Virus record (IMG/VR): IMGVR_UViG_3300015370_001125
Coordinates: 1 to 42,624 of that record
Source: a virus
Taxonomy: Duplodnaviria > Caudoviricetes
DNA length: 42,624 nucleotides
Strand: one strand, 5' to 3'
Below are positions 1-42,624 of this stretch, one piece after another. Every line of letters starts with the position of its first letter. Position 1 is the first letter of the stretch. A program made the translations under genes and the position numbers. Below the pieces are notes generated by a model, which worked only from the letters and a program-made list of their open reading frames with translations, ran no database searches and was not told the origin of the DNA.

Positions 1-852
1 TCACCCAAGTCTTTTCTTATGTACTGCCAAATATCTTCTTAGAAAATAATCAACAAATGCTTCCTGTCCTTTAGGAAAAGCATTATAATATGATCTCCTT
101 TTTTTATATTCAATAATTAGCATAGGATAACCCGCATGCCAAAGAATTTGATTCATTAACAATCTTCCAATTCTTCCATTACCATCTCCGAAAGGATGAA
201 TACTCTCAAATTTATAATGTGCTCTTGCAGCTAATTCAACAGGATTTAATTTTGATTTATTAACAAAATCTATAATTTGGTTCATAGTCAACCTAATTAC
301 ATTCCAATGTGGAGCAATATAACTTCCAACTCTTACAAGATAATTTCTGTATTTTCCTGCAATATCTGATTTAGTTTCTCCAAAAATTTCTTTATGCCAA
401 CCCAAGAATAATCCATTGCTAATATTTTCCTTTTTCTTCAACATTTCTAAAAACACTTTATTGTGAGCTTCTGTTTCCTTTACATCTCTAATTGGTTTGT
501 TTGGAGAAATCTTATCTTGAATAATTTCTCTTACCTCTTGTAAAGTAATAGTAGAACCTTCAATAGCATTAGAGTTGTAAGTAAAAGCTATGGAAATCTC
601 CTCTTTTTCTTTTTCTTGAACACTTTTTGGAAGTCTTTTCCACTCTTTTTGAAAATTTAATTTAATCTTTTCTAATTTTTTGTAGAGGTCTTTTTTTAAT
701 TCTTTACTAAATTCTCCTTTAATTTCATCTATGTTTTTTGGAATCCCTAATCCGAGATATTTCTCTCTGGTTATTACTTTCTTCCCTTTCCTAAAAGAAT
801 GTTGTAAGTAGTAATATTCTTTCTTGCCCTTTTTTTTAGTTATAATCCTCAT
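1..852 (-). CDS. fic: Fic family protein (AMPylase) with N-terminal inhibitory motif
   Basis: Canonical HPFGDGNGRIGR Fic motif and SNAIEG (S/TxxxEG) inhibitory helix. Confidence 0.93.
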   Translation of the reverse strand: MRIITKKKGKKEYYYLQHSFRKGKKVITREKYLGLGIPKNIDEIKGEFSKELKKDLYKKLEKIKLNFQKEWKRLPKSVQEKEKEEISIAFTYNSNAIEGSTITLQEVREIIQDKISPNKPIRDVKETEAHNKVFLEMLKKKENISNGLFLGWHKEIFGETKSDIAGKYRNYLVRVGSYIAPHWNVIRLTMNQIIDFVNKSKLNPVELAARAHYKFESIHPFGDGNGRIGRLLMNQILWHAGYPMLIIEYKKRRSYYNAFPKGQEAFVDYFLRRYLAVHKKRLG

Positions 853-858: not shown

Positions 859-913
859 CTTACCATTACAAAGTATATAAATGTTATGTTTTTAGATAAA
901 ATGTAATGGTAAG
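859..913. promoter_or_regulatory. Perfect 12-bp inverted repeat flanking the fic TATA box
   Basis: CTTACCATTACA (859-870) / TGTAATGGTAAG (902-913) with a 31-bp spacer containing TTTATATA on the minus strand (874-881). Confidence 0.7.
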
Positions 914-931
914 AAATACATCACTCGATTA

Positions 932-1059
932 TGCCAAAGGGGTAACACGCCCACGCCGGGTTGTGAAGATGCCCCCGCCGGGTGTTGAGAGTCGTATTCG
1001 ACCTTCTGACGCCCACTCAGGGAATCGAGGAAATGTGACACCCTGAGAGGGAATCGAAC
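932..1059 (-). repeat. Tandem array of distinct tRNA 3'-end fragments (candidate att cores)
   Basis: Minus strand: GTTCGATT-CCCTC-TCAGGGT-G (1059-1039), CTCGATT-CCCTG-AGTGGGC-G (1029-1010), CTCAACA-CCCGG-CGGGGGC-A (989-970), TTCACAA-CCCGG-CGTGGGC-G (967-948); weaker units at 1002-983 and 946-932. Each clear unit has the 7+5+7+1 geometry of a tRNA 3' end. Confidence 0.75.
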
Positions 1060-1081: not shown

Positions 1082-2068
1082 ATGAAAGAAAGAAAAAAGA
1101 AAAAAGTTCAAAAAACAATCCATAAGAAAGATTTGAACCTGATAATATATCAGTTAATCAAAAGCGGGTTCAGACCTTCTAAAATATGTGGCATTCTTAA
1201 TGTAAAGAAAACAGCTCTGCAATATCATTTATCTTTGCTGAAAGAGGCTAAATTAATCAAAAAAGTAGGATATGGTGTTTGGGAAGTTGTCGGAAATTAT
1301 AGTGAGAAAAAGTTCAAAAAAACAAGCCGTGTAGCTCGTAACAACTGGGGGAGTAAATTTGAACTTCTTAAGCAAGATCAAGTAAGAGGACATGCATTTC
1401 AGTTCAAGCTTTTAATACCCAAAGGCTTGAGAAATTGGAATAAAAAAGAGGAGATTTTGCTGAAAAAGGGCATTGAATTCAAAAAATTAGATCATCTCTT
1501 TGGAGGAGGTGTTAGTTTAGATTTTAAGGGCCGAAAAGTCCATTTGACCAACAGTTCTGTAATCATTTATGAGAAGGAAAGCTACATAGCTGACCTTGCA
1601 AAAGATGCCAAAAGTGCTGCAATTTATCACTTTATGAAGCTTGTTAGAGCCTTAGAAAAGCATTTGAAAGCTGACTTTAGTGTCAGGGGTCAGTATAAAT
1701 TCAGAGTTACGAGACAACATTATGCATTAGTTAAGAATGCTTTGGCAAAGCAATATGATGAAAAAGGCGACAAATTAGAAGTTTATTCTGCAAATGGATT
1801 GTGGTTTGTGATTGACAATTCTTATAATTTAAAAGAAGCTGAAACAGTCAACCCTAAAGAAGCTGACTTAGACAATGAAAAAGTACAAGATTTCTTCAAT
1901 TCTCTTAAAAATCGACCTATAACAACTAACGAAATTCATTCTAATTTTATAGAATTAAGACAGATGATGAAAACAAGCTCAGAAAATCAAATTATGCTCG
2001 GTCAGGTTCTTCAGCAGATGGAGAAAAATGTTGCAAGAATTATAAAAAAGGTGGGTGAAGATGTATAG
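1082..2068 (+). CDS. N-terminal wHTH protein with a large C-terminal domain; candidate replication initiator
   Basis: HTH-like RPSKICGILNVKKTALQYHLSLLKEAKLIKKVGYGVW; first gene of the early operon; no other replication gene in the window. The Rep function is inferred. Confidence 0.5.
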   Translation: MKERKKKKVQKTIHKKDLNLIIYQLIKSGFRPSKICGILNVKKTALQYHLSLLKEAKLIKKVGYGVWEVVGNYSEKKFKKTSRVARNNWGSKFELLKQDQVRGHAFQFKLLIPKGLRNWNKKEEILLKKGIEFKKLDHLFGGGVSLDFKGRKVHLTNSSVIIYEKESYIADLAKDAKSAAIYHFMKLVRALEKHLKADFSVRGQYKFRVTRQHYALVKNALAKQYDEKGDKLEVYSANGLWFVIDNSYNLKEAETVNPKEADLDNEKVQDFFNSLKNRPITTNEIHSNFIELRQMMKTSSENQIMLGQVLQQMEKNVARIIKKVGEDV

Positions 2069-4274: not shown

Positions 4275-4673
4275 ATGACAACATTATCAAAAAAAAAGGT
4301 TAAAAATGCAATACCGGGAAGTTTGGGTATTTATGCAATAATAGCAAAAAAATGTGGAGTTGATAGAAGTACAATAACTAAATTTTTAAAGAAAGAAAGA
4401 AACAAGAATATTCTGCTAGAAATAGAAGAAGAAAGAGAAAAGATCCTTGATATTGGAGAGAAAAAACTTATAGGATTAGTTAATGATGGAGAATTTCCCG
4501 CAATCAAATTCTTATTGTCAACTAAAGGAAAAAATAGGGGGTATATTGAAAAGAAAGAATTAAATGTTCATGATGAAAGAACAAGGATAATCATAGAAAA
4601 AGCTGATAATGATAACAATAAAGTGGAAACCAAGCAGAAGGCAGGAACAAGCACTGGAAGTCCTTCAGGATAA
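4275..4673 (+). CDS. terS: Terminase small subunit
   Basis: HTH (IAKKCGVDRSTI), AIKFLL..KGK.RGY motif, directly upstream of and overlapping terL. Confidence 0.8.
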   Translation: MTTLSKKKVKNAIPGSLGIYAIIAKKCGVDRSTITKFLKKERNKNILLEIEEEREKILDIGEKKLIGLVNDGEFPAIKFLLSTKGKNRGYIEKKELNVHDERTRIIIEKADNDNNKVETKQKAGTSTGSPSG

Positions 4674-5946
4674 AATACACACGGAAATATTTTATGGTGG
4701 AGGAGCAGGTGGAGGTAAGTCTTATTTGGGATGTTTCTGGTTGTTTTATAATTGTATTGAGTATCCGGGATCAAGATGGTTAATGGGCAGAGCAATATTA
4801 AAAAGTCTAAAAGAATCAACACTTTTAACATTCTTTCAAATATGCAAGCAGTTTAATGCCAAACCCAAAATAGATTACATCTATAATTCTATAGAAGGTA
4901 CAATAAAATTTTGGAATGGAAGTTCTATTTATTTAAAAGATTTATTTCATTATCCGAGTGATCCTGAATATGATAGTTTAGGTTCAACAGAATATACTGG
5001 AGCTTTTATAGATGAAGCAAGTCAAATTACTTCCAAAGCAAAGAATATTGTGATGTCGAGAATTAGATACCAACTCGATAAGTTTAAATTGGTACCAAAA
5101 CTTTTAATCGCAAGTAATCCCTCTAAGAATTTTTTATATTTTGAATTTTATAAGCCATCAAAGGAAAAAACAATAAAACCATATAGATCATTTATTCCCG
5201 CATTAGTTGGAGACAATCCTTTTATTTCGAAACATTATATTGATAATCTAAAGAAATTAGATAAGATAAGTAAGGAGAGATTATTGTATGGGAATTTTGA
5301 ATATGATGATGATCCTACAAAACTCTTTGATTATGATTCAATAATGGATATGTTTACAAATGATGCAGAAAGGGGTCAGAAATACTGCACTGTTGATGTT
5401 GCCGGAAGAGGTAGAGATAAAACTATTGTTATAATTTGGGATAATTTCTTCATTAAAAAAATAATTGTAAAAGATAATATTTCAAGTGAAGAGTTAGATA
5501 AGATTTTAATCCAATATAATATTCCAAGAAGTAAATGTGCAATTGATGAAGACGGGGTTGGTTTTGGTTTAGTAAAAGATTTATCAGGAGTTAAGGGATT
5601 TGTCAATAATGCTCAGGCTATTAGAAAAAAGAAAGAAACAGATAGAGATAAAGCCTTAAGAAATTACAAGAATCTTAAAGCACAGTGTTGGTTTGAATTA
5701 GCAAATTATGTCAATTCAGGACAGATAGGAGTTTATAGAGAGATACCTGTTGAAACGAGAGAATTACTTGTTGAAGATTTAGAACAGATAAAACAAAAGG
5801 ATCCGGGAAAGGATGCCCCACTTACTGTTTTGTCAAAAGAAGCTATCAAGGAAAATCTAGGAAGATCAACAGATGTTGGCGATGCTTTAATGATGAGAAT
5901 GTTTTTTGTTGTAAATACAAAAGAGCTTGCATTTGCTTTTGGCTAA
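4609..5946 (+). CDS. terL: Terminase large subunit
   Basis: Walker A GGGAGGGKS, Walker B FIDEASQ, ASNP coupling motif, nuclease DVAGRGRD...DVGDALM. Confidence 0.95.
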   Translation: MITIKWKPSRRQEQALEVLQDKIHTEIFYGGGAGGGKSYLGCFWLFYNCIEYPGSRWLMGRAILKSLKESTLLTFFQICKQFNAKPKIDYIYNSIEGTIKFWNGSSIYLKDLFHYPSDPEYDSLGSTEYTGAFIDEASQITSKAKNIVMSRIRYQLDKFKLVPKLLIASNPSKNFLYFEFYKPSKEKTIKPYRSFIPALVGDNPFISKHYIDNLKKLDKISKERLLYGNFEYDDDPTKLFDYDSIMDMFTNDAERGQKYCTVDVAGRGRDKTIVIIWDNFFIKKIIVKDNISSEELDKILIQYNIPRSKCAIDEDGVGFGLVKDLSGVKGFVNNAQAIRKKKETDRDKALRNYKNLKAQCWFELANYVNSGQIGVYREIPVETRELLVEDLEQIKQKDPGKDAPLTVLSKEAIKENLGRSTDVGDALMMRMFFVVNTKELAFAFG

Positions 5947-5996
5947 CCTTCTATTTTTTAAGAATATTCTCAAATTTTGAAATATTGTTTATAAGT
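5945..5996 (+). promoter_or_regulatory. Conserved late-promoter module, copy 1 (upstream of portal)
   Basis: AGAATATTCT palindrome, then GAAATATTG, then TATA-like TTTATAAG; 47/52 identical to 14499-14550. Confidence 0.8.
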
Positions 5997-6042
5997 TATT
6001 TTGGGTTTTCAAGAACATCCCTGCGCTTTTCCCATCATACTC

Positions 6043-8226
6043 ATGGCAGAAGAAAACTTGAATAAAGGCCTTATCAATACTTTCAAAAGCTGGTTTAAAA
6101 AATCAGAAAAATCAGTGTTGCCTGTAGGCTCAATAACTGAAGAATCAAGAGATGAATTGAATAAAGCTCTTGAACCAAAGTTTTTATTCAAGCCTCCTTT
6201 TGGATATCCTCGAAATGTTAATCTTTTGGAAGTCAGAAGATTGGCAGCAACTCCTTATGTTGAGATGTGTATTTCTACAATTATTGATGAGATTGGTGCT
6301 ATTGAATGGGATATTGTTACAAAAGAATGTGAAGAGGGTGGAGGAAAAGACGAACAAATTGAGCATATTAAAAAATTCTTTGAGAATCCAAATACTAATA
6401 AAGAAAGTTTTGAAAAGATTTTGAGAAAAGTTGTTAGAGACATCTTGGAAGTTGATTCTGGCATAATGATTAAACAGTTTAATATGAAAGAGGAGATGGT
6501 TGGAATTGTTGCCAAAGACGGAGCTACATTTAATAAAAATCCTGATATTTATGGAATGTTTACAGATAGAGAAGAATTAATGATTGGCTCAGAAATTGTC
6601 GGAGATAATAAGCAAAGTCAGAATATGCAACCCGGAATGATTAAGACTTCTGAGGCAAGAGAGAAAGCAGCTTATTTTCAATTTGGATGGGTTACAGGAA
6701 TTAGACCTATACCATTTGGAAAAAGAGAAGTTGTTTGGTTTGAAAGAAACCCCCGAACAGATAATTTTTATGGAAGAAGTCCAATTGAGATTTTAGCAGA
6801 AGCAATTCAAATGTTGATCTATTCTATTGAAGATAATCTGAAATATTACAATGACAATAATGTGCCAAAAGGTGTTTTAGGATTAGAAGAAAGTGATGCT
6901 GATTCTGTAAAAGCATTTGAGGATCAATGGACTCAAAAGATGCGCGAAAGAGATGCTGTCGGCAATTGGAGAAGAAAACCCCACCATATTCCTATAATAA
7001 ATAAGAAGCCCACATTTACAAGGATACAATTCTCAAATGCAGAGCTTGAATTAATTGAACAGCAAAAATGGTTCAGCAAAATGGTTTGGGCTTCTTTTGG
7101 AGTTACAGCAACAGAACTTGGATATACTGAAGACGCGAAGGGGATGGCCAATCAGATTGTTCAAAGTCAAGTGTTTAGAAAGAGGGCAATTAATCCTCTG
7201 TTAAGAATGATTGAATATAATATCAATAAAGAGATTATTTCCGAATTTGAATATGGGGGAATTGAATTTAAATTTAATACCTTTGATGTTGAAGAAGAAA
7301 CAAAAAAGGCGGGTTTATACAAAGCTCAATTAGACACCTTCAAAACAGTTAATGAAATAAGAAGAGAAGAGGGGCTGGATGAAGTTGAAGGAGGCGATGA
7401 AGTAAAAAGAGCCTTTTCGGAGAATACTTTTAATTTTGGAGAAGATAAACCTTTCAATAATCCTGATAAAAATAAAGAACCCGATAAAGAAGAAAAAGCA
7501 TTATCAACTTCTGGAGCAGACGCATTATTTCCAAAAGAAGGTGAGCAATTAGAAGTTTATCTTAAAAAATTAATGAAGAAAAACGAGAGAAAAATAGTCG
7601 AGCTATTGGAGAAGGAAAAAGGAAAAGATCAGATTAGCCAATTAAAAAGTGTTCAGGATGTTGTAAAATTTGTTAATCAATTACTGACTTTTGAAGGAAT
7701 AAAAACATTAAGTGATCCAGCAATAGAAAAATTATTTACAAAGGGTTGGGACAAATCAGAGGATCGACTTCAGAGAAATTTAGAGATGAATAAAGAAGCT
7801 CTTGAGATTTTAAAGAAACATACTTTTGAAAACCTTAAAGGAATGACTGAAGAAATTGCTGAAGATTTAAGACAAGAATTAGAAAGGGGTTTTATCAATG
7901 CTGAAACTATTGAGCAATTGAAAGACCGAGTGAAGAAAGTTTTTGATGTAGGTGAAAACAGATCTATGATGATAGCTCGGACAGAATCTAATAGAGCTGA
8001 AAATCAAGGTCAATTACAAGCTATGAAAAAAAGTGGAGAGAAAATGACTAAAACTTGGCTTTCTGCTAACGATGATCATACTTCTCCTTTATGTAAAAGA
8101 TTGAATGGAAAAACAGTTGGATTAAATGAAAAATTCTTAGATTCACAAACTAAACAGGAGTTCGATTCACCGCCTGCTCATGTAAATTGCAGGAGCACCA
8201 TGGTGTATAATTTTGAAGATGACTGA
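6043..8226 (+). CDS. Portal protein fused to Mu gpF/SPP1 gp7-like head morphogenesis domain
   Basis: Portal motifs (YGRSPIE, NNVPKGVL, SFGVTATELG, TVNEIRREEGLDEVEGGD) followed in frame by RSMMIARTE...WLSAND..TSPLC..LNG...PPAHVNCRS. Confidence 0.9.
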   Translation: MAEENLNKGLINTFKSWFKKSEKSVLPVGSITEESRDELNKALEPKFLFKPPFGYPRNVNLLEVRRLAATPYVEMCISTIIDEIGAIEWDIVTKECEEGGGKDEQIEHIKKFFENPNTNKESFEKILRKVVRDILEVDSGIMIKQFNMKEEMVGIVAKDGATFNKNPDIYGMFTDREELMIGSEIVGDNKQSQNMQPGMIKTSEAREKAAYFQFGWVTGIRPIPFGKREVVWFERNPRTDNFYGRSPIEILAEAIQMLIYSIEDNLKYYNDNNVPKGVLGLEESDADSVKAFEDQWTQKMRERDAVGNWRRKPHHIPIINKKPTFTRIQFSNAELELIEQQKWFSKMVWASFGVTATELGYTEDAKGMANQIVQSQVFRKRAINPLLRMIEYNINKEIISEFEYGGIEFKFNTFDVEEETKKAGLYKAQLDTFKTVNEIRREEGLDEVEGGDEVKRAFSENTFNFGEDKPFNNPDKNKEPDKEEKALSTSGADALFPKEGEQLEVYLKKLMKKNERKIVELLEKEKGKDQISQLKSVQDVVKFVNQLLTFEGIKTLSDPAIEKLFTKGWDKSEDRLQRNLEMNKEALEILKKHTFENLKGMTEEIAEDLRQELERGFINAETIEQLKDRVKKVFDVGENRSMMIARTESNRAENQGQLQAMKKSGEKMTKTWLSANDDHTSPLCKRLNGKTVGLNEKFLDSQTKQEFDSPPAHVNCRSTMVYNFEDD

Positions 8227-8560
8227 AATAAGCGCATATAGGGGGGATGATAAAACATGGAACTTGAATTTTACAGATGCAGATGGAAATGCAATTGACC
8301 TAACAGGATCAACTATATTCTTTACAGTAAAATCGAATAAGACTGATCAAGATTCGGATGCTGTTATATCAAAAGATCAGTCATCTCATGTTGATGCTGT
8401 TAATGGGCAGACCCAAATTGTCTTAACAAATTCGGATACAAACATTAAGATTGGAAATTACTATTATGATTTTCAACTAGTAGATTCAACAGGTTTGGTT
8501 ACAACTGTTTTATCTGGTATATTCAAAATTAAACAGGATATAACTGTGAGAACATCATGA
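8219..8560 (+). CDS. BppU-N-like Ig-fold virion/accessory protein
   Basis: RGD....F.D..G..IDLTG....F.VK...Y.YD.QL pattern typical of BppU N-terminal-like domains. Confidence 0.6.
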   Translation: MTEISAYRGDDKTWNLNFTDADGNAIDLTGSTIFFTVKSNKTDQDSDAVISKDQSSHVDAVNGQTQIVLTNSDTNIKIGNYYYDFQLVDSTGLVTTVLSGIFKIKQDITVRTS

Positions 8561-8760
8561 CAGATCAAACAATAAATGTGGCAATAGGTGAAGATGTGAT
8601 TAATGTTACTTTGGAAGCCGGAGTCAGCTCGATTACATATGTTGCCGAGGATGTTAAGTTTAGATTTGATGGCGAAAGTGGCGATACTTATTTGCTTTAT
8701 AATTCTGCAACTGGAAAATTAGAGTTGTGGGTTGATGGGGTGAAAAGACAACAATGGTGA
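8557..8760 (+). CDS. Small hypothetical protein
   Basis: ATGA overlap with the upstream gene and overlap with the downstream gene. Confidence 0.65.
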   Translation: MTDQTINVAIGEDVINVTLEAGVSSITYVAEDVKFRFDGESGDTYLLYNSATGKLELWVDGVKRQQW

Positions 8761-10400
8761 TAAATAAAATTTTAATAGGAATACTAGCATTAGTTTTATT
8801 AGCTGTGCCTTTTGTGAGTGCAGATATAGACCTTTTTGATAATATTAATATAAGTAATTATAATATTACTGCTGATAAATTTATCGGGGATGGGAGTTTA
8901 TTGACTAACTTAACGGAAAGCCAAATTGATGACTTACAACATACTGCAGATACGAATAGGACTGATGCGGAAATAAATACCTTGATAGATAATCGTGTTA
9001 TTCAGGCTTTTATAGAGGCATTCGGTTTTGTCACAGGAGCCCACACAGTGGATACAAATAGAAGCGACGCTGATATACTTTCAGTTGCAAGTGTTTATAA
9101 TGATACAACTGCAATAAATGCAAAATTGGATGCAACAGATCAACGCTATAATGAAACAAGTTTAATCGAGTCTGTTAACACAACTTCCAATATTGAAGGT
9201 TTGGGCTTTGTCATAGGAGCACACACAATAGACACTAATCGAAGTGATGCAGAAATAATTAATGTATGCTCAATTTATAATGAAACTAATTGGGTAATTG
9301 CTCAAAGTTATTTGACTTCTGAAAGTGATCCTAATTTATGGACAGTATTATTTAATACAACTGGAGATAATAGATGGTTAGATGATACAACAATAGGCAA
9401 CTGTTCTGGAGATGGATCATGCTCGGGGATAATTTATGATTCTGAAACTTCAGGATGGGATAAAAATGAGAGTAATGATTTTGATGGTATTTGGAGTTCC
9501 TTGACAAGTGTTCCATCTGGATTTTCTGATGATGTTGATAATGACACTTTAGATTCTTTAAGTTGCTCTGCTGATAAAATAGCCAAGTGGAACGCAACAT
9601 CAAGTTTATGGTATTGTGCTGATGATGAAACTGGAACTCCCGGAGCAGGAGATATTGAAGGAGTTTTAACACCCGGGAAATATTTAACAGGAGGATGCAC
9701 AACAGGAACATGCAGTCTATATGCTAATGAATCAGAATTAAACAACACTTATGTCCCTTATTCCGGAGCCATTGGAAATGTGAATATTTCTCCCTATACA
9801 CTTTTTATGCAATCTTTTCAAGCATATGGATCAGCCCAAATAGATGGCAGTCTTGATCTTTATGGAACTCTTAACTTTGATGGATTGTGGGCCTTGGAAG
9901 GAGATAACATTGACGTAGGAGCAGGATGGGTTCCAGAAACAGATGATATGTTTCCTCTTGGAAATTCTTCTAGGAGATGGACAGCAGGATGGTTTTCCGG
10001 GAATGTAACTGCTGATTATTTTATTGGAGATGGTAGTTGGTTGACAGGAATTCCATTATATACTCACCTTTCTAATTTTACTGATGATATTGGAGTAAGT
10101 GCTGACTGGGATGAAATAGGTGATGTGCCAATTGCAACTCCAAGTGATGGGGATACAACACATTTGTCAACAGCAGATCAAATTTATGATTGGATTATAG
10201 GATTAGGATATATTACTGATGCAAATGTTGCTTACATAAATGAATCAAATACTTTTTCAGAAGAGCAATTTTTTAGTGCAGGGATAAATATCACACAAGG
10301 AAATAATCTTACGATTGGCGCCTGTCAAGAATCTTGGAATGGTACTTGTTTAAACACTTATTGTGCAGGCACACTTATCCAATCAATAGGATGCGCTTAA
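8754..10400 (+). CDS. Secreted fibre-like glycoprotein (signal peptide, internal repeats)
   Basis: N-terminal KILIGILALVLLAVPFVSA signal peptide; 3x HTxDTNRxDAxI; 2x TAD(K/Y)FIGDGSxLT; many N-x-S/T sequons. Confidence 0.75.
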   Translation: MVINKILIGILALVLLAVPFVSADIDLFDNINISNYNITADKFIGDGSLLTNLTESQIDDLQHTADTNRTDAEINTLIDNRVIQAFIEAFGFVTGAHTVDTNRSDADILSVASVYNDTTAINAKLDATDQRYNETSLIESVNTTSNIEGLGFVIGAHTIDTNRSDAEIINVCSIYNETNWVIAQSYLTSESDPNLWTVLFNTTGDNRWLDDTTIGNCSGDGSCSGIIYDSETSGWDKNESNDFDGIWSSLTSVPSGFSDDVDNDTLDSLSCSADKIAKWNATSSLWYCADDETGTPGAGDIEGVLTPGKYLTGGCTTGTCSLYANESELNNTYVPYSGAIGNVNISPYTLFMQSFQAYGSAQIDGSLDLYGTLNFDGLWALEGDNIDVGAGWVPETDDMFPLGNSSRRWTAGWFSGNVTADYFIGDGSWLTGIPLYTHLSNFTDDIGVSADWDEIGDVPIATPSDGDTTHLSTADQIYDWIIGLGYITDANVAYINESNTFSEEQFFSAGINITQGNNLTIGACQESWNGTCLNTYCAGTLIQSIGCA

Positions 10401-10401
10401 A

Positions 10402-13400
10402 ATGGCAGGCAGAAGATGGTTGAAAATAGGTGGTGGAATAGCAGCAAGTGTTACAACAATCATAGGCCTCTTCCTTCTTTTACAAACTCAATTTGGATTT
10501 GAAATTAATGACTTGACTGGAAATTTTACTTGCCTTGGAACATATGAGAATCCATGTATTTCAGAATTTGAAGTGAGAAATCCTACAATGTATAATGTTG
10601 ATATTTATTCAAAGGATCAAGTAAAACTTAATTTTAGCCCTGAGATAAAAGATTGGGCGTTATTTGTACCTGATGGAAGGTGCAGTGCTACAGGAAAATG
10701 CGCTTGTGAATTAAAGAACGGCCAAAGACTAGGATTTGAAGATTGGAGATGCGTCGATTTTACTAATAAAACAAAACCAAGAGCAGACAGGGTTTATAAT
10801 TTTAGGTTTAAGAGATATTCAACAACGAAATTCAAGCTGGCTGGAATTAAGAAAGATCCTAGAAATACAATTAAGTGGACATTTGGAGCAAAAGGCGGAG
10901 AATTAGATCCTCTTTGGAAAGGATTCTCTGATGAAACAGATATTAATAAAAATGCAAATTATAAAAAAACTTCTTTAAGCAACTTCTCAATAGCCTCCCC
11001 TAATTCAGTTAAATGCACTTGGGGTTTAGACGGAAAAAAACACTGTAATACTATAATTATAATAGAAAATGGGCTTAATCAAACATATAAGTTTGACAAA
11101 GAAAAGATAAATATTCCATTTGATAGAGCAGCTCAGAACCTTAAACTAGAATATTCAACAAATTTTACAAAAGTTCAAAAAGAGATTCTTGATTGGGATT
11201 GCATAGAAAAAGAATCAGAAAAGGAAAGAAATATGACTATTGAAAGGGCAAGGGAAATAGATGATATCTCAAAAGAAGAAGATTATTTTCAAAGTATCTG
11301 CAAAGAAGAAATTATAGATTATGAGTTTACAGATTGGCAACCTTTAATTTTAAGCAATTTGGATCAGGTTTCAGCAAATTCTGTAATTGGTATAAAACTG
11401 CAATTTGATACAGAACTTTGGAGAGGACTTAAAGCAAAGAATAATTTTAATATTAGTTTAATGGGACAGGATTTTGACTTAGTTCTCGATCCAGAAATAG
11501 ATGATTGTATGGATATTACTGCAAGTGGGGCTTATACATTAAACCAAACGATTACTATGGGGACAACACCTTGTTTAAATATTAGTGCAAATAATGTCGT
11601 TCTTGATTGTGATGGTTACAAAATTGATGGAACCTCAACTGGATCTGCTATTTATGTGAGAAGGGCTACGGGCCAAGATGTAAATGTGACAATTTTAGAT
11701 TGTTCTGTCGATGATACAACGTATGCTCTTGATATTAGAAATGCAAATAATCTCAATGTCACAAATTTTTATTCATGGTCTGCAGGAACATATGGAATAT
11801 ATACATATACTTCTGATTTAGGAGTTTATAAAAACATTACAGTAGATGGAGATAATGATCCAACTTACGGAATATATTATTATGAAGGAGATAATGGAAA
11901 GATTACAGATTTGATACTTTATGATGCGACCACACAAAATTTTAGAAGTTATGATTCAGTAGGGCTTAATTTTACAAATGTGTTAAGCTATTCAGGGCCA
12001 AGAGGGATGGTCCTTAGATATCCTTATTCAGGAATAGCCAATATTAATATTATTAATTTAACAACTTATGATAACACTTACACTGGACTTCAATTAGATC
12101 AAATAAGTGATGTTGATGTTTCAAACTCAAAAATTTATAATAATTCTCAGTATGATTTTGATATGTCTCCTTCAGTAGCAAGCCATTGTGACGGCCATTC
12201 ATTTACAAACGTGAATATTACGGATTCAAAAGGGGGTATCACTGGCACAATAACCTACAAAGATTCTGCAAGCCAAACAATTGAAAATGATGATTTTGAA
12301 TTAATTGTTTTTTGCGATGCAGATAATTCTGTTATAAACAATGTGACCATTAAGGGATATTCAGGGGATGCAAAAAATGGACTTCTTATTTATTTAACAG
12401 ATGGGTTAAACATTACAAACAGTATTTTTAATTATACATATGATGGAATTGCCTATGATGGTGGAGATTCATTTAATGGATTAATAAAAAATAATCAATT
12501 TTATAATACACAAAGATATGATCTTACTATAAATTCTTATGGAAATGGAGTTGATGTTATTAATAATTCATTTACTTCAACTATTTATGCAGGAGCCCAA
12601 AATATAATTATTATTAACAATACATTTGTGACTGGAACAGATTATGTTATTTATGAAGGAGCAGATGCAGACAGCACTGTGATCTATAATAATATTTTTA
12701 ATAAAAGTAATGGAGCTCCCTATGTAGATTCATCATCAGGAGCAGATATTCCTTATAATACTTCACAACAAGCAGGTGGAAGAATTGTAGGAAATGGAAC
12801 AGATATAGGGGGAAATGTTTATTATAATTCTACAGGAGGTTATTATCTTGATTGTGCAGATTCAAATATGAATGGAATTTGTGACAACTCTCTTGATATG
12901 GGGGATGTTGTATCTGAAGCAATTGATTATCTTGCTTTAAGTGATGAATACATTGCAGACGCATTTAATCCTTGGTGGATAATTGGTTCAAACTCTACAA
13001 ATGACACAACTGCTAATACAAATATATTATTTAGTCTTAACTGGAAGGATGACATAGTTCTTGACAAATATATTTTTAGTTGGAGAAATGGAGGCAACTG
13101 GACATTAGATAATTCTTCATCAGATCAAGAATCAGGAACTCAATCAGAAGAAGGTCAATCTGGTGAGGGAGGAACCCCTTCAGAATATTATGATGATTTT
13201 GAAAGCGATTTTGGTCATTGGGCAGTACATCAAGGAATAAACTGTCCAGATGCAGACGCATGGGGAGATAGGGGAACAAGTACACCTTCTAGTAGCACAG
13301 GTCCTCAAAGTGGGGGGGTTGGAGGTGCTGGCACTTATTTTATTTTTGTAGAATCATCCTCAGGAAATTGTTATGACACTGGAGATATTGCCTTAGTTTA

Positions 13401-14496
13401 TTTTAATACAACTTTAGATTATGATTCTAGTTCTGGTGAAAAAATAGAATTTTATTTTGATGCATATGGTGCTACTATTGACGATTTATATTTAGAAGAA
13501 AACAGCACTGGCTCTTGGGTAAAATTATGGGAGATGCATGACATAAGTAATGACTATTGGAATTTTACAAGTATTGATTTATCAAGTTTAACAGGCGCAG
13601 GAACTTTAAGATTTAATTATACAAGAACAAGCACAGGCTATACAAGCGATATTGCATTAGATAGAATTAATGTAACTACATCAGGAGGGGGAGTAGAAGA
13701 TAACGAGGCCAACAAAACAGCAATTACTTATTCTAATGTATTGTCTGGAGGATATGATGAAGTTAAAAACATAACAACAACTGTTTATGTTTCTTATTAC
13801 AATAATTCAGGGTCAGAGGAAAATGGAAATAATAATGCAACTTTGTGGCTTGAAATTTATAACGGGAGTGATTGGCTAGATGAAGGAGATTTTTCTGTTA
13901 ATGGAGATAATCAGAATTTCTCAATAACAACTACAACAGCATCAATTCTTACCGGTTGGGAAACTGATGCAAATAGAAATGCGAGAATTTCTGCAAGGTA
14001 TATAGATTATAACTCAACAACAAATGAATCAGATGTAATTAATTGGACAGGAATTTGGGTTAGCATGTTTACAGAGCAAGAATGGTTTAATGAATCAGAA
14101 ATTTCTTTTGTAACAGGAGATTGTACAAATGATTCTAAAACTGATTGTTGGAGCAACAGTAGTCATACAGTTACTTCAGATGTGGGTGCATTGATTGAAT
14201 GGAGATATTATGTTTGGGATGGAGTTGAAAAAACAAATTATAGTGATATATTTTCATTCGTGACGACTGGGGGCGCAGAAGATAGTTGTACTTATACTGG
14301 TGGGAATTGGAATGTTGACTGCTCAGATAATTGTGTAATAAGTTCTGATGTTACGATTGACGGATCAAATATTTATATGACTGGGACTGGAACATTTACA
14401 ATCAACAATGGAGTTAAAATTTCTGGATGGACTTATAGATATACTGACAGAACTTGTTATGTCAAGGCTTTTGGCTCTGGAGGATTTTTCCAATAA
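10402..14496 (+). CDS. Large membrane-anchored/secreted adhesin-like protein (right-handed beta-helix plus MAM-like domain)
   Basis: N-terminal hydrophobic segment; NosD/pectin-lyase-like region (CLNISANNVVLDCDG...IGGNVY); MAM-like DDFE...TPSSSTGP...YFIFVESS...DIALDRI; sequon-rich. Confidence 0.75.
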   Translation: MAGRRWLKIGGGIAASVTTIIGLFLLLQTQFGFEINDLTGNFTCLGTYENPCISEFEVRNPTMYNVDIYSKDQVKLNFSPEIKDWALFVPDGRCSATGKCACELKNGQRLGFEDWRCVDFTNKTKPRADRVYNFRFKRYSTTKFKLAGIKKDPRNTIKWTFGAKGGELDPLWKGFSDETDINKNANYKKTSLSNFSIASPNSVKCTWGLDGKKHCNTIIIIENGLNQTYKFDKEKINIPFDRAAQNLKLEYSTNFTKVQKEILDWDCIEKESEKERNMTIERAREIDDISKEEDYFQSICKEEIIDYEFTDWQPLILSNLDQVSANSVIGIKLQFDTELWRGLKAKNNFNISLMGQDFDLVLDPEIDDCMDITASGAYTLNQTITMGTTPCLNISANNVVLDCDGYKIDGTSTGSAIYVRRATGQDVNVTILDCSVDDTTYALDIRNANNLNVTNFYSWSAGTYGIYTYTSDLGVYKNITVDGDNDPTYGIYYYEGDNGKITDLILYDATTQNFRSYDSVGLNFTNVLSYSGPRGMVLRYPYSGIANINIINLTTYDNTYTGLQLDQISDVDVSNSKIYNNSQYDFDMSPSVASHCDGHSFTNVNITDSKGGITGTITYKDSASQTIENDDFELIVFCDADNSVINNVTIKGYSGDAKNGLLIYLTDGLNITNSIFNYTYDGIAYDGGDSFNGLIKNNQFYNTQRYDLTINSYGNGVDVINNSFTSTIYAGAQNIIIINNTFVTGTDYVIYEGADADSTVIYNNIFNKSNGAPYVDSSSGADIPYNTSQQAGGRIVGNGTDIGGNVYYNSTGGYYLDCADSNMNGICDNSLDMGDVVSEAIDYLALSDEYIADAFNPWWIIGSNSTNDTTANTNILFSLNWKDDIVLDKYIFSWRNGGNWTLDNSSSDQESGTQSEEGQSGEGGTPSEYYDDFESDFGHWAVHQGINCPDADAWGDRGTSTPSSSTGPQSGGVGGAGTYFIFVESSSGNCYDTGDIALVYFNTTLDYDSSSGEKIEFYFDAYGATIDDLYLEENSTGSWVKLWEMHDISNDYWNFTSIDLSSLTGAGTLRFNYTRTSTGYTSDIALDRINVTTSGGGVEDNEANKTAITYSNVLSGGYDEVKNITTTVYVSYYNNSGSEENGNNNATLWLEIYNGSDWLDEGDFSVNGDNQNFSITTTTASILTGWETDANRNARISARYIDYNSTTNESDVINWTGIWVSMFTEQEWFNESEISFVTGDCTNDSKTDCWSNSSHTVTSDVGALIEWRYYVWDGVEKTNYSDIFSFVTTGGAEDSCTYTGGNWNVDCSDNCVISSDVTIDGSNIYMTGTGTFTINNGVKISGWTYRYTDRTCYVKAFGSGGFFQ

Positions 14497-14498
14497 TC

Positions 14499-14550
14499 AA
14501 CCTTCCATTTTTTGAGAATATTCTTAATTTTTGAAATATTGTTTTTAAGT
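14499..14550 (+). promoter_or_regulatory. Conserved late-promoter module, copy 2 (upstream of prohead protease)
   Basis: 52-bp near-identical copy of 5945-5996; TATA-like TTTTTAAG about 20 nt before ATG 14571. Confidence 0.8.
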
Positions 14551-14570
14551 AAAATATAGTTCTTATCTCT

Positions 14571-15479
14571 ATGAAACAAGAGGTATTTACAGTTTATTCA
14601 GACCCTATTGCTTTTGGAGAAATTCAAGAGAAGGGTGAAAAAAAGTTTATTGCCGAAGGGTTTATTTCTACATCCGAGAGAGATTTAGTTGATGATGTTG
14701 TAACTGACAGAGCTCTTGACAGTATGATGAATCAGATGAAATCAAGAGTTATAAAATTAGATTTTGAACATGAAGCTTTTCGAGGGGAAACTGATCTTGA
14801 AATGGAGATTAATAAAACTCGTATGACTTTGGCAAAAGCTGTTGACTTTGCGCGTATTAAGGATGGGGAAAGGAATGGTGTTAAAGTAAGATGGGAATTT
14901 AACGATACTTGGAAAAAATTTGATTCTAAAGGTGATGTTGTTATGAATTTTTTAGACATTAAAAAAAATGTTGAGAAAGGATTTTATGATGCTTTCAGTA
15001 TAGCTTTTGTTCCTACTAAATCTGTTAAAAAAAATATGAAAGATGGTTCTTTGGTGAGATTATTGGATGGTATGAACCTTCTTAATGTGGCCCTTACAGG
15101 AAACCCGATTAATCCGGGGGCTTCAATGACTAATGTTTTTCTGAAATCTTTGAAATCTTTGAATGATTCAGGAGATAAAATAAAATTAAAAAGGAGGATG
15201 AAGGACATGCCAGAGGAAGAAACAAACGACGAGTCTCAAAGCAATGCAGAATCAGAAACTCAGGAAGAAACTGAAGAGCAATCTGAAGAAGGTAGCGCTG
15301 AGAAAAAGGCCAATGAATTGAATGGTGTTGAAGTGAAATCAAGGTTAGATGCATTAGAGAAATCTGTTGCGAACATTGAGAAAGCACTTAACAAGCCTGT
15401 TCAGAAAGCTATCTCAGAACAAAAACCAAAAGATGCTAATGTTGAAGAGAAAGCTGTTGAACCTCTTGACCTTATCTAA
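14571..15479 (+). CDS. HK97-type prohead protease with acidic C-terminal scaffold region
   Basis: EGFIST...DLVDDVV, H in FEHE, AFSIAF, LLNVALTGNPINPGA; located before the MCP; acidic, coiled-coil tail. Confidence 0.85.
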   Translation: MKQEVFTVYSDPIAFGEIQEKGEKKFIAEGFISTSERDLVDDVVTDRALDSMMNQMKSRVIKLDFEHEAFRGETDLEMEINKTRMTLAKAVDFARIKDGERNGVKVRWEFNDTWKKFDSKGDVVMNFLDIKKNVEKGFYDAFSIAFVPTKSVKKNMKDGSLVRLLDGMNLLNVALTGNPINPGASMTNVFLKSLKSLNDSGDKIKLKRRMKDMPEEETNDESQSNAESETQEETEEQSEEGSAEKKANELNGVEVKSRLDALEKSVANIEKALNKPVQKAISEQKPKDANVEEKAVEPLDLI

Positions 15480-15482
15480 AAA

Positions 15483-16625
15483 ATGAGTTATCAAGATTTA
15501 GAAGCGGGCCAAGTAGGGACATATGAGATGCCAAGTATTGATTTAAAATCAACTTACTCACACTCATTTGGTTACTTGCCTGATAAGACGCAATACATTA
15601 ACCACTGGAAAGGTGTTGATGGAAGGGCTAATTTGAAGGGGCTTTTTAGCAAGGGTATGAAAGCTCTTACTACAAGCACTGGTGGAAGTGGAACAGCTGG
15701 TAATGCAATGGTTCCGGTTTTTTTAGACCCAAGAATTGTTGACATAACTAGAAAAGAAACTCCATTAGTTGAGTTAATCCCTCGTGTATCAAACATGGGG
15801 CTTACAGCAGACTTCAATAGGTTAACTGCAAAAGGTGGCGCATTTACTGCGGCAGAAGATGCAGTTATGGCTGAAACAAATGACACTTATGTCAGAGTTA
15901 GCAAAGCTATCAAATTTGTATATGCAGTTGGTAGAGTTACTGGTCCAAGTCAAGCAGCATATCCGTCTTTCATACTTCAAGGTCTTTTGTCAACTGGGTC
16001 TGGTTTAGGAGAGAATCCTTTCTCACCTGCTTCAGCTCCAAATGCAAGACAACTTGAAGTACAAGTCAAAGCTCAGTCTTTGAGGGAAAAGGAAGAGGAC
16101 TTGATAATCAATGGTGATTCATCAAGCGATGCTACTGAATATGATGGTATTGTTGTGCAACAAAGTACAACTAACCAAAATGATCTTAGTAGTGCAGCTC
16201 TAACTTGGGACGATATCGAAACAACCGCAAGAACAGCATTTGATAATGGTGGAAGACCTAAGATCGCTGTTGCTTCTAGTTCTGTTTTACAGGACATAAG
16301 GACAATAATGATTGATACTTTCAGATACAGCCCAGCTGATATGAGAGCAGGTGCAGAACTGCCATTTGGTGTAAGTGCAACTCTTGTATTGCAGACAATG
16401 GTCGGAAATATTCCAGTAATTCCAAGCAGATTCTTATCAAATACCTCAGGTTCTAAGCAGATTTATTTCTTAGACACTGATTGGATTGAGATGAGAGTTC
16501 TTTTGGATATAACTTTTGAAGAATTAGCGAAAACTAATGATAGTCAAAAGTTTATGCTGAAAATTTACGAATGTCTCGTTTTGAGAGCACCCACGTTCAA
16601 TAGTTTTATTGACAACATTGCGTAA
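15483..16625 (+). CDS. Major capsid protein (HK97 fold)
   Basis: 380 aa after the protease; GNAMVP..LDPRI, EEDLIINGD....EYDGI, IPVIPSRFL, IYFLD motifs. Confidence 0.92.
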   Translation: MSYQDLEAGQVGTYEMPSIDLKSTYSHSFGYLPDKTQYINHWKGVDGRANLKGLFSKGMKALTTSTGGSGTAGNAMVPVFLDPRIVDITRKETPLVELIPRVSNMGLTADFNRLTAKGGAFTAAEDAVMAETNDTYVRVSKAIKFVYAVGRVTGPSQAAYPSFILQGLLSTGSGLGENPFSPASAPNARQLEVQVKAQSLREKEEDLIINGDSSSDATEYDGIVVQQSTTNQNDLSSAALTWDDIETTARTAFDNGGRPKIAVASSSVLQDIRTIMIDTFRYSPADMRAGAELPFGVSATLVLQTMVGNIPVIPSRFLSNTSGSKQIYFLDTDWIEMRVLLDITFEELAKTNDSQKFMLKIYECLVLRAPTFNSFIDNIA

Positions 16626-19684: not shown

Positions 19685-20119
19685 ATGACTGGAATAACTG
19701 TAAGTTTTAGTTTGAAAGACAAGGATGTAAATGAAAAATTAAAGAAAGTATTATTTAGATCAATGGTTGATATGCAGAAAATAGCAAAACAAGGAGCTCC
19801 TGTTGATACTGGAAGATTAATAAATTCTATAAAATTATTCCCTTCTTCTCCCGGGAGCACTCAATATCTTCTTATTGCAACTGTAAATTATGCCGGCGAT
19901 GTAGAATATGGGACATCTCCTCACTTTGTAAGCGAAAAAGCATTAAAGGGATGGGCTAAAAGAAAACTTGGTGATGAAGATGCAGCAGGTGCAGTATCTC
20001 AAAAGATTCAAAGAGAGGGAACAAATGCTCAACCGTTTATGAGGCCTGCTTTAGAGCAAGTAAAATATAAAAAATTAAAGATTCATTTTGACAGAATTTT
20101 AGGTGAAAGTAGTATTTGA
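19685..20119 (+). CDS. HK97 gp10-like neck/tail-completion protein
   Basis: APVDTGRLINSI, YA..VEYGT, AQPFMRPAL signature. Confidence 0.9.
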   Translation: MTGITVSFSLKDKDVNEKLKKVLFRSMVDMQKIAKQGAPVDTGRLINSIKLFPSSPGSTQYLLIATVNYAGDVEYGTSPHFVSEKALKGWAKRKLGDEDAAGAVSQKIQREGTNAQPFMRPALEQVKYKKLKIHFDRILGESSI

Positions 20120-20121
20120 AA

Positions 20122-20156
20122 AGAATATTTAAAATTTTTGAAATATTGTTTATAAG
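20122..20156 (+). promoter_or_regulatory. Conserved late-promoter module, copy 3 (upstream of tail operon)
   Basis: AGAATATTTAAAATTTTTGAAATATTGTTTATAAG; 31/35 identical to 5961-5995. Confidence 0.8.
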
Positions 20157-20214
20157 CTTCTTAGAATTCTTAGTTCTATTAGGTCAAGAGACCTAGTAAA
20201 ATCCAAGAGGTAAA

Positions 20215-35923: not shown

Positions 35924-35924
35924 G

Positions 35925-40459: not shown

Positions 40460-40837
40460 TTACGTTTTAAGATAGGCAAGGGCATCATATAATGGCTTGC
40501 CGGTTGTTTGAAGAGGGAATACTTGAGTGGCTTTGCATCTTCCATCTAATTCATTTAATTTTTTTGCTAATTGAAATATGTCTAATTTTGAGAAGGCTTT
40601 GACACTTTCATTATATTTTTTCTTAGAAACGCCTATTGACTTAATCAAGTTTTCATCTCCTTCAAACTCACAAGGCCCTTTTTTAATATCCCTGAGATTT
40701 ATGCTTCCATCAACAATAATCCAATCCTGAGAGTCTTTATGTGAGCTTAGAATATCGCTTTTCATTAGAACAGTAATATGATCTTTCTTCATCCCCTTGC
40801 CTTTTGGGCTTACAGCTATTATCTCTCCTTTAGGCAT
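40460..40837 (-). CDS. Hypothetical protein
   Basis: Overlaps the integrase stop; GGAGG SD before ATG 40837. Confidence 0.65.
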   Translation of the reverse strand: MPKGEIIAVSPKGKGMKKDHITVLMKSDILSSHKDSQDWIIVDGSINLRDIKKGPCEFEGDENLIKSIGVSKKKYNESVKAFSKLDIFQLAKKLNELDGRCKATQVFPLQTTGKPLYDALAYLKT

Positions 40838-42359
40838 TTGGGACAACCTCCATCTGCGGATTTGCTTTTGACAGCATAATCTGCTTCAACTCTTCAATTC
40901 TCTGGTTATATTCTGTTTTCAATTCAAGCATCATCTGGGCCTGAGTTTGCCTCATATTTTCTTTTTCCTGATTGTGCTTTTCAACTAACTGCAATATCAT
41001 CTCATTCTCAGAATGACCCTTTAATTCTGCTTTGCTTATTCTTCCTTTATAGCCGACAACTTTTGTGTAATAATCAAGCCTTCTCATATCAGTCCATCCG
41101 CCCCTTAATCTTATTTTATCAGTAGAAACACCTGTTTCAAATCTGAAATAACAAGATCCCGAATGCCTTAAACTGTATCCAGTTATATTAGAAAAAGGCT
41201 TTCCACCCTTGCTCATCTTATTTCCAAATGTTGTGATGTATGCATTTTGAAGAGTTTTATTAAAAATTGTATAATTATAATGCGGGAATAATCTTTGTCC
41301 GGGCTTCAATTTATGCCTTTTTATATAAGCCTTTAATTTATCAACACATAAAACCAATTCAAATTTTCTTCCATACGTCTTTGCAATTTCATCTCTAACA
41401 TTCAACTCTACCACACCATCTTCATAAAAAGTTATATCATCAAGACAGATATTTGAAAATTCCAATGGGCTTCTTATAATTGAATCAAATATAAACAAGG
41501 TGACTGTCTGATCATCTTCACTGAGAGCTGGAAGAACTTCTTGTAATTCTTCATATGTTGTATAAACAAAAGTATTTTTCTTTGGAGATCTTGCAAGATA
41601 TTTCACAACATCTATAACATATCTTTTCTCTTTCAATGGTTTTTTCTTGCTTTTAGGGAGTTTGCTATTTTCAACTTCAACACGCTTATTTTCTTCATCA
41701 ATCTCTTCATTCTCTTCATCAATAACTCTAACATTCCAATTCCAGAAAGCTACAAAATCTCTGATAAAATCATCTACACTTTGAAAAGGTTGTCCTTTTT
41801 TAGTCTTGAATACCCCTTTTTTGAAATCTTCAAAGAAATGATGAATCTGCTTTCTATTGTCTAAATCCTCAAGATTCTTCTTATGGCGCTCTTCAATAAG
41901 TCTTGCAATCATCTTTAGATGATATGCCAAAGCAAGTATTCTCGCCTTTGATCTTGGGCCTTTTTTTGACTGTTTGGCGGTATTAAGCCCTTGCTCCATA
42001 TCACTCAAAAACCTCAGAATCATATTAGAATTGGCTTTGCTAATGCCACTAATGCCTTTTTTATTTCGTTCTTTCCAATTAGCATATAATTGATCTTTTT
42101 TCAAAGGATCAAACCTCTCCTTTTTATTATGTGGATCTGATACCATCATACAAACCTCAAAATCACTTCTTTTTGGTGCGCTTCCATTAATACTCTTAAT
42201 ACACCCATCCGTAATATTCTTTCGGTTCAATATGTTACTTTTTGTATCACTTTTGTCATCATTTGAACTAATTAAAGTGTTTTCCACTTCCAACGCATCA
42301 ACAGAAATAGTTTCTTTAGTTCTCTTAATTTTCTTGACTTGTTTAATTTGTTCTTTCAT
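40830..42359 (-). CDS. int: Tyrosine recombinase/integrase
   Basis: R (IIRSPLE), K (AKTYGR), YSLRHSG (HxxR position), GGW, YY nucleophile region. Confidence 0.9.
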   Translation of the reverse strand: MKEQIKQVKKIKRTKETISVDALEVENTLISSNDDKSDTKSNILNRKNITDGCIKSINGSAPKRSDFEVCMMVSDPHNKKERFDPLKKDQLYANWKERNKKGISGISKANSNMILRFLSDMEQGLNTAKQSKKGPRSKARILALAYHLKMIARLIEERHKKNLEDLDNRKQIHHFFEDFKKGVFKTKKGQPFQSVDDFIRDFVAFWNWNVRVIDEENEEIDEENKRVEVENSKLPKSKKKPLKEKRYVIDVVKYLARSPKKNTFVYTTYEELQEVLPALSEDDQTVTLFIFDSIIRSPLEFSNICLDDITFYEDGVVELNVRDEIAKTYGRKFELVLCVDKLKAYIKRHKLKPGQRLFPHYNYTIFNKTLQNAYITTFGNKMSKGGKPFSNITGYSLRHSGSCYFRFETGVSTDKIRLRGGWTDMRRLDYYTKVVGYKGRISKAELKGHSENEMILQLVEKHNQEKENMRQTQAQMMLELKTEYNQRIEELKQIMLSKANPQMEVVPNA

Positions 42360-42477: not shown

Positions 42478-42624
42478 ATGGCAAAAAAGAGTGTAAAAAA
42501 AGAAGGGGATCGAAAAACAATCACTATAAGGAAGAGTACTCATAAAAAACTAATTCTCAGAAAAGCCAACGATGATTATAATAATCTTTCAGATTTAATC
42601 GAGGATTTGTTAAATAAAAAATGA
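42478..42624 (+). CDS. Ribbon-helix-helix regulator/antitoxin-like protein (48 aa, not in the ORF track)
   Basis: KTITIRKSTHKKL......NNLSDLIEDLL beta-helix-helix pattern; TATA box about 25 nt upstream. Confidence 0.75.
   Translation: MAKKSVKKEGDRKTITIRKSTHKKLILRKANDDYNNLSDLIEDLLNKK

Follow-up and report, generated by a model that had tools for sequence, protein, structure and literature searches.

Why should a virus carry a row of different sequences that resemble tRNA 3' ends beside its first gene? The window we analyzed (the whole 42,624 nt of IMG/VR record IMGVR_UViG_3300015370_001125) is a provirus region that ends at two stop codons and comes from an 84.6-kb contig, L001. Positions 932-1059 hold units shaped like tRNA ends, which an earlier note, made from the letters alone, had read as an attP with replacement ends for several tRNA genes, or else as an ordered, CRISPR-like log of past integrations. 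From sequence comparisons, we put the chance at about 65% that the array is instead the attR of a provirus, with U4 as the crossover core, U2 and U1 as accessory integrase sites of the kind that TnpI uses, and U5 as an older, stacked core. We infer which unit is cut, that the integrase binds the units, what they do and how much mismatch the overlap tolerates; for the target tRNA and the crossover unit this is because the cognate tRNA and attL lie beyond base 42624.

The array is the most GC-rich 128-nt stretch in the window (GC 0.58, against about 0.33 overall), so the island in AT-rich DNA is there with the letters first given for it. Its minus strand carries four dyads of the form CCC-N5-GGG-Y-R, with stems that start at 1051 (U1), 1022 (U2), 982 (U4) and 960 (U5) and successive spacings of 29, 40 and 22, and each dyad is centred on the T-stem/acceptor junction. 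The rest of the 42.6 kb has no further dyad of this form, save U4 read on the opposite strand. Three or more never arose when the island was shuffled 20,000 times with its dinucleotides kept (the maximum was two, in 4 shuffles). ARAGORN called no tRNA genes in the window, and an Rfam scan of it returned no family with E below 2.

Six tandem tRNA-end units had been described. Four of them (U1, U2, U4 and U5) are real, while U3 and U6 are spacer DNA. The third unit (GTCGAAT-ACGAC-TCTCAAC-A) was mis-parsed: it is the U2-U4 spacer with its palindrome, its last letters are the left flank of U4, and it holds four of the nine strain changes listed for 961-1060. The last unit (CCC-CTTTGGC-A) is part of a spacer in the attL arm of another integrase family. 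The layout of that arm matches the DNA behind the tRNA-Asp ends of two loci (L073 and L096), where these ends adjoin short-type integrases, and it resembles a third locus (L068). The coordinates of all features are in Table 1.

Table 1. Features of the window, by position on the 42,624-nt stretch.
Feature	Coordinates	Strand	Remarks
Fic-family gene	1..852	-	PF02661, E 1e-20; outside the proposed provirus
12-bp inverted repeat upstream of fic	859..913		Host or older-island side; probably the fic operator
Remnant attL-type arm, second (short) integrase family	916..947	-	16-nt spacer, then TAATCGAG-like motif
9-nt spacer and U5, exact tRNA-Asp 3' end	948..969	-	Presumed older, displaced core; 22-bp step
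U4, site c, exact tRNA-Glu 3' end	970..982	-	Presumed crossover core (attR)
b-c spacer, 4-bp palindrome at 991-1002	983..1009		Spacer length kept across arms, sequence not
U2, middle site b	1010..1029	-	40 bp from U4; likely accessory integrase-binding site
U1, distal site a, with T-loop-like flank	1039..1059 (dyad 1039-1051)	-	69 bp from U4; likely accessory integrase-binding site
wHTH-fused conserved ORF, first viral gene	1082..2068	+	533 homologues; wHTH fold at residues 12-84
Head-tail virus module: terminase, portal, major capsid protein	4609..16625	+	PF03237, PF04860, PF17236
Tyrosine integrase	40830..42359	-	Homologues with PF00589
Small ORF divergent from int	42478..42624	+	Putatively RHH/Xis-like; no family hit

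Comparing the units with archaeal tRNA ends, as had been proposed, gave a split answer. U4 is found exactly behind a T-loop in 7 of 151 genomes, plus L041, and U5 in 14 of 151, as well as in the tRNA-Asp of L073 and L096. These two are true tRNA-Glu and tRNA-Asp 3' ends, and the idea held up that the units belong to the att site of a tyrosine integrase system aimed at tRNA genes. Neither U1 nor U2 has an exact tRNA match in any of 391 genomes; the nearest are tRNA-Ser(GCT)-like ends, one or two changes off (in G295, and in G381, whose tRNA identity is presumptive). The exact U1 21-mer had no match in viral contigs. There is a gradient of T-loop fidelity along the array, but it is not one of age: the worst T-loops, those of U4 and U5, carry the exact tRNA-end stems.

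An arm with site a at -69/70, site b at -39/40 and site c at 0 recurs in 9 of 401 related genomes (G003, G368, G083, G045, G269, G325, G092, G121 and G200), and U1-U2-U4 fits it exactly. Site c of the nine arms is a tRNA-Glu-type end followed by unrelated DNA. The arms stand either beside a homologous integrase or at the close of integrase-less islets at tRNA-Glu. At the G003 integrase locus (43-47% identity), three dyads at spacings of 30 and 40 lie upstream of int, with sequences that differ from those in the window, and this arm comes after the integrase and its small divergent ORF. The N5 of U1 begins with TC, as does that of site a in 6 of the 9 relatives. In four of the nine arms (G269, G325, G092 and G121) site b stands in the reverse orientation about the same centre, which would be impossible for a replacement tRNA end. 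The fixed spacing and the 0 exact matches in 391 genomes also speak against U1 and U2 as such ends for other tRNAs.

The three-dyad pattern occurs in 2 of 401 genomes (control 0) and the two-dyad pattern in 19 of 401 (7 for the reversed control), 16 of them att-like. The other three are unrelated: the one in G054 is coding sequence, and those in G220 and G256 are repeats beside tRNA-Leu (a duplicated tRNA-end flank at L121:1501-1556 and three exact 33-bp tandem units at L122:1501-1581, respectively). Partial arms are present in G104 (a-b with a decayed c) and G314 (two sites only). In viral contigs the strict three-dyad pattern had no match. The arm patterns hit 5 + 2 loci there; six we consider chance (GC 56-71%, and neither tblastn nor blastn gave a match), while the seventh is the L041 locus already mentioned.

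The other side of the element has a mirror arm. After tRNA-Glu, sites at +35 and +69/70 are found in L039, L041, L044, L047 and G083, and the first site, at +34/35, is also found in G104 and G375 and weakly in G045. Three genomes have both ends on one contig (G083, 1,577 bp; G045, 1,834 bp; G368, 1,738 bp), in the order tRNA-Glu, arm, cargo, a-b-c, host, and in each an intact cognate tRNA in matching orientation lies at the other end. Wherever one contig holds both ends the cognate target is tRNA-Glu, which again speaks against U1 and U2 as replacement ends for other genes. The array itself sits at a provirus junction, attR-like, and is not a free attP. In some genomes the tRNA is fused to a different position of the arm, namely b in G093 and a in G368, where six units follow in a row.

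No integrase match was found within the 1.6-1.8-kb islets of G083, G045 and G368. Integrase-less islets of this size at tRNA-Glu, with complete left and right arms, can be seen at L147:583-2175, L145:630-2537 and L107:4750-6656, and they look like cassettes. By eye, their genes are toxin-antitoxin-, nuclease- or phosphoesterase-like.

In G083, G045 and G368, as well as in G003 (where the ends are on two contigs), the N5 of the tRNA is retained and site c differs from it by one or two bases; perfect identity between the tRNA and c covers only 5-11 bp. In four of five further arm-bearing genomes site c differs from every listed Glu/Asp-type end. The centre of the 7-bp overlap is probably mismatch-tolerant. 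An alternative is that the overlap is the terminal GGGGC only, which fits the same data; we favour mismatch tolerance because of the anticodon cases described next and the flipped b. With either one, a single core could serve several tRNA-Glu/Asp genes, which is a route to several targets other than the multi-target cassette of the earlier note.

Some elements with related integrases are aimed at other parts of the tRNA. Those of G001 and G293 interrupt the host tRNA-Glu at its anticodon loop; 12-13 bp around CCC-TTTCG-CGG are common to both ends, and copies of this core dyad lie at -67, -35, +30 and +62. These elements bring a complete second tRNA-Glu. The element of G002 has the 5' end of a tRNA-Leu as its shared core, and core copies are found at -70, -35, +30 and +61, over two contigs. 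The copies in each of these genomes mimic one target, and so the copies follow the target. Crossover in the T-loop, which had been taken from known integrases, does not fit: the shared identity in relatives surrounds the T/acceptor junction or the anticodon loop. As a separate observation, elements that split host tRNA-Glu or -Asp at the anticodon loop hold a complete second tRNA copy inside their left end and leave the host gene unrestored (L049:9770-9972, L150:10210-10442 and L046:9646-9972).

Strain variants show which parts of the array change. For variant X2, 18 of 23 strain differences are listed, and for X3, 5 of 12, on contigs with a depth of 2.7-5.8; we did not count run X1 as support, since the window may come from it. 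None of the nine X2 changes listed for 961-1060 falls within the three dyads, which take up 39 of these 100 positions (P=0.009). The b-c spacer takes five of these nine and three of the five listed for X3. U2 has one C>T change in X3 and none listed in X2. X2 has one extra core, 22 bp beyond U5. X3 retains U1-U2-U4 without U5, is common with the window over 969-1049 and diverges inside U1 and directly after U4; its viral-side flank differs and resembles the int-side arm of G003.

Unit gain and loss among related strains, which had been suggested as something to look for, is thus seen, and it is confined to the host side of U4. Limited stacking of cores at this locus is real, and so the proposal that tRNA ends accrete stands to that extent (U5, the extra core in X2, and scars in G093 and G368). 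A log made of all the units is unlikely, in the CRISPR-like form or any other, as three of them keep a fixed geometry across genomes of differing sequence. A cassette or ordered log would have every unit be a real target and the number of units vary at one end; here only U5 and the extra X2 core vary.

The integrase has what is expected of a tyrosine integrase that targets tRNA genes. Its catalytic residues are intact (R296, K327, R398-H399, W422 and Y430/431 are invariant in a 10-row alignment), and a tRNA 3' fragment is present at the boundary: U4, an exact tRNA-Glu end, lies between the first viral ORF and non-viral genes. With the predicted structure, the best Foldseek matches were Cre and XerA (E 5e-7), and ESM Atlas gave only unnamed clusters, under 0.9. 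The fold is predicted to be two-domain and Cre/XerA-like, with no folded N-terminal arm-binding domain. Residues 1-79 have a pLDDT under 50, are unconserved and are absent in five of nine homologues, in an alignment of 10 rows only. With such a fold, accessory sites would be read by the core-binding domain, and therefore any accessory site that the integrase binds would have to resemble the core. A charged helical insertion between the core-binding and catalytic domains (residues about 210-250) is found in the long type of integrase only (P0121-P0126) and not in the short type; it might link protomers on accessory and core sites.

Long-type integrases, 42-51% identical, were found at three loci only (G001, G002 and G003), among 110 of 401 genomes with any integrase match, and all three loci have multi-site arms. 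A cluster of CCC-N5-GGG-YR, the one pattern searched for there, was found at none of 27 short-integrase loci (L078-L104). Family-level searches (111 genomes each, largely one set) gave no additional long integrase, and viral contigs scanned with the wHTH ORF, the integrase and the integrase alignment gave no match. The eight arm-bearing genomes besides G003 gave no full-length integrase match; there are partial matches only in G269, G368 and G200.

Gene context places the array at one end of the element. Among the 12 closest loci of the wHTH-fused ORF, counting L001, a tRNA lies directly upstream in eight (L039, L041 and L044-L049; in L041 and L047 it was read by eye across an intron), three end too early, and L001 has none. 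Because of these eight we take the ORF to mark one att end; its close homologues abut att junctions at tRNA-Glu, -Asp or -Leu. No such arm was seen in the upstream DNA of roughly 40 more distant loci. The order int, small ORF, att is also found in G001, G002 and G003, and we predict the far att junction just beyond the small ORF, on the side where a unitig extends 2,559 nt past the window. The window has no terminal repeats. Homologues of the wHTH ORF that have names are mostly from Pacearchaeota, Woesearchaeota or Nanoarchaeota, and judging by them the host likely belongs to this DPANN group. We use "Pacearchaeales" as a working order name for G001-G003, after the taxon names of these homologues.

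The ORF itself had no Pfam hit, and a fold search matched only the wHTH part of the model; it has invariant R-x-H, H-Y and DNS-x-N-L-x-E motifs. It is possibly a candidate for a Rep_trans/Rep-Arvir-like replication initiator in a tailed virus. Its coding start (AAAGAAGTTCAAAAA-like, window 1100-1125) is kept at the DNA level, and a AAAGAAGTTCAAAAA-like motif or ACTTCAAG-N6-CTTG also occurs near the int-side arm of G002 and G003 (L066 and L065, upstream of int), where it is a possible operator.

Several other features of the region deserve mention. Left of fic, the parent contig has nadA, a radical SAM gene and an aroB-like gene. Stretches similar to the inverted-repeat region upstream of fic are on other contigs in all four sequencing runs compared, and in X1 and X2 contigs with this repeat run straight into tRNA-Asp-type ends; fic islets may be frequent residents at this site. 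A partly palindromic 52-nt intergenic repeat occurs three times, ahead of the portal, prohead and tail genes (5945-5996, 14499-14550 and 20106-20157), and these copies are possible late promoters. Within the proposed provirus, 28185-39539 carries cargo: an Ig-like surface protein, a double AsnC-type regulator, a DUF2779/Cas4-like nuclease, NucS-DUF4268, and a C5 methylase with flanking ORFs. Part of it is common to the G003 element.

We propose the following mechanism. A Cre-like integrase would cross over at U4, with U2 and U1 as further binding sites of the same protein. Core-like accessory sites would explain why the units all look like the T-stem/acceptor junction and yet differ in their central five bases. 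The full attP, as reconstructed from relatives, would have five dyads (a at -70, b at -40, the core, b' at +35 and c' at +70); we found no free circular genome with all five sites among the viral contigs searched. Its central dyad would recombine with the J site of the tRNA, and attR would retain a-b-c. The accessory dyads would give the synapse its shape and determine direction or strand order, as DR1 and DR2 do for TnpI. U5 likely goes back to an earlier insertion that left its tRNA end behind. Now and then, crossover or deletion would take place at an accessory site, and tRNA ends would become stacked in this way. We believe that accessory copies do sometimes become junctions, by integrase or by repeat-mediated deletion, because the tRNA is fused at b in G093 and at a in G368, and U5 is best read as the leftover of such an event.

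There is evidence against this mechanism. The 30/40 arm lies on the side of the wHTH ORF in the window and on the int side in G003, which has a 35/35 arm on the ORF side, and we must therefore assume an inversion or an exchange of arms. The divergence of X3 begins inside U1, which is what a crossover there would produce, and X3 has one change within U2. U1 and U2 are also only one or two changes from real tRNA-Ser(GCT) ends.

This last point counts in favour of a multi-target cassette, where U1, U2 and U4 would be alternative cores and one virus would enter tRNA-Ser-like as well as tRNA-Glu/Asp genes. U1 differs from Ser(GCT)-like ends by two stem changes and U2 by one, the TTCGATT loop is shared, and the tRNAs joined to position a in G368 and b in G093 show that those sites can come to lie at a junction. 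We think such a cassette unlikely: exact matches to U1 and U2 are absent from 391 genomes, b is flipped in four arms, the arms with both ends visible (G083, G045 and G368) are all at tRNA-Glu and end at c, the junctions at a and b are still of tRNA-Glu with its own acceptor, and in G001, G293 and G002 all copies of an element imitate just one target. Just as unlikely, in our view, is that U1 is the crossover, with U2-U4-U5 left over on the host side as arm and cores from elements that had settled there before. The shared stretch of X3 (969-1049) with its different viral-side flank is in favour of this, the tRNA in G368 is followed directly by b-c, and the best T-loop belongs to U1. Against it, U1 ends in GGGT-G and has no exact tRNA match, its N5 resembles site a of arms that target tRNA-Glu, and the end of a conserved arm would likewise give divergence outside U1.

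Two further explanations give the array no role as accessory integrase sites. If every unit were a displaced or captured tRNA end from successive events, with no present function, then the 22-bp steps of U5 and the extra X2 core would be natural, as would the stacks of up to six units after tRNA-Glu in G368 and the scars that G093 and G293 show; elements are known to accrete in tandem at tRNA ends (PMC4383910, PMC5704250). We rate this as very unlikely, since it accounts for U5 only: the -70/-40 spacing is fixed in 10 arms of different sequence, the X2 changes avoid the dyads, b is flipped, and T-loop fidelity runs opposite to stem fidelity. That the array is a structured RNA, an ssDNA element or an origin bound by the adjacent wHTH protein is quite unlikely. 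The plus strand does fold better than shuffled DNA (z -2.97; 1/200 shuffles), pairing is kept in 7 of 8 strain changes at paired positions, with one compensatory pair (992/1001), and Rep-Arvir initiators combine a wHTH with a hairpin origin, according to part of the source (PMC13107129). However, the kept pairs are mostly C/T changes opposite G, and folds differ among arms (z -0.15 to -4.35). RNAalifold over the ten arms returned a covariation term that was positive, and 1/16 and 0/10 pairs had both partners altered, so the conserved fold that had been named as a possible refutation of tRNA-derived units did not appear: the arms have no shared structure or covariation. Arms are also present on islets without the wHTH ORF, close ORF homologues (L045, L046 and L049) have no dyads between the tRNA and the ORF, and a Rep-Arvir origin lies downstream of its gene while the array is upstream of the ORF.

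Returning to the attR reading, a wider proposal can be built on it that is possible, although we would not bet on it. Viruses of Pacearchaeales may have an undescribed system in which a Cre-like integrase without an arm domain binds five copies of its target dyad, tolerates mismatches in the overlap and enters several tRNA-Glu/Asp genes with one core. Its target would have shifted between three subsites of the tRNA, each time with a joint change of all five copies. It would also move integrase-less defence or toxin-antitoxin islets in trans, like gene cassettes, and would sometimes cross over at an accessory copy, so that tRNA ends pile up in order as a record of earlier insertions. A five-site att made of core copies would get its directionality from DNA architecture alone, and would extend the TnpI principle to a viral integrase. 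With the arms as a marker, proviruses and cargo islets of DPANN genomes can be mapped precisely. The J site, the anticodon loop and the 5' end form a natural series on how an integrase changes its target when five sites must change together. The array is also a warning that clusters of tRNA-end fragments are not to be read as lists of targets.

Known systems have several of these properties, and for each of the papers cited here the comparison covers part of its text. Islander (PMC4383910) provides cases where integrases cross over at subsite J, the T/acceptor junction, and where islands lie in tandem at one tRNA. Islander-type islands resemble our array in having a displaced tRNA 3' fragment at the island end, a dyad centred on subsite J, and tandem arrays. 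They have one fragment each, however, whereas here the core has two more core-like copies to its left and two to its right, all at set distances, and its central bases are often not the same at both ends of an element. The E. coli TLRs (PMC8144298) are repeats that also end in a copy of a tRNA 3' end, but they come directly after the gene and have 18-19 identical bases; in our case there is no upstream tRNA, in the window or in L001, and the 13-nt dyads have different centres and an integrase context.

Tn916-type integrases are mismatch-tolerant. The IntDOT integrase likewise tolerates mismatches inside the overlap (PMC2817482), and our elements would resemble both in the tolerance suggested by tRNAs that keep their own N5 beside a site c one or two bases off. 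CIMEs and site-specific accretion are known for bacterial conjugative elements (PMC5704250). Our islets are similar in that CIMEs lack an integrase, keep attL and attR and are stacked with later elements at a tRNA end, but ours are archaeal, 1.6-1.8 kb long, have multi-site arms and are presumably moved by a viral integrase. The accessory sites of a lambda-type attP are unlike the core, while ours are copies of the core dyad.

The available part of a review on archaea (PMC8371274) does not describe such arms, and the words "provirus" and "integrase" are absent from the portion of a Nanobdellota preprint that we could cover. We found no description in the open-access literature, which was the extent of our search; subscription papers are mostly, and supplements wholly, outside this coverage. 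Another known system is TnpI/IRS of Tn4430, in which the recombinase binds a core and two accessory motifs that set the synapse geometry and the strand order (PMC2847244). The accessory motifs are core-like and at fixed distances in both cases, with binding putative in ours. The task of TnpI is cointegrate resolution for a Tn3-family transposon, and its accessory motifs are all on one side; here there are a viral integrase, dyads on both sides (G001 and G293) and tRNA mimics. By analogy, we think that the array works like TnpI/IRS without being a member, given its provirus context. Crossover at subsite J, tandem islands, recombinase-bound accessory motifs and accretion are thus all known, and what is most likely new is the multi-site arm made of core copies at a viral tRNA att junction.
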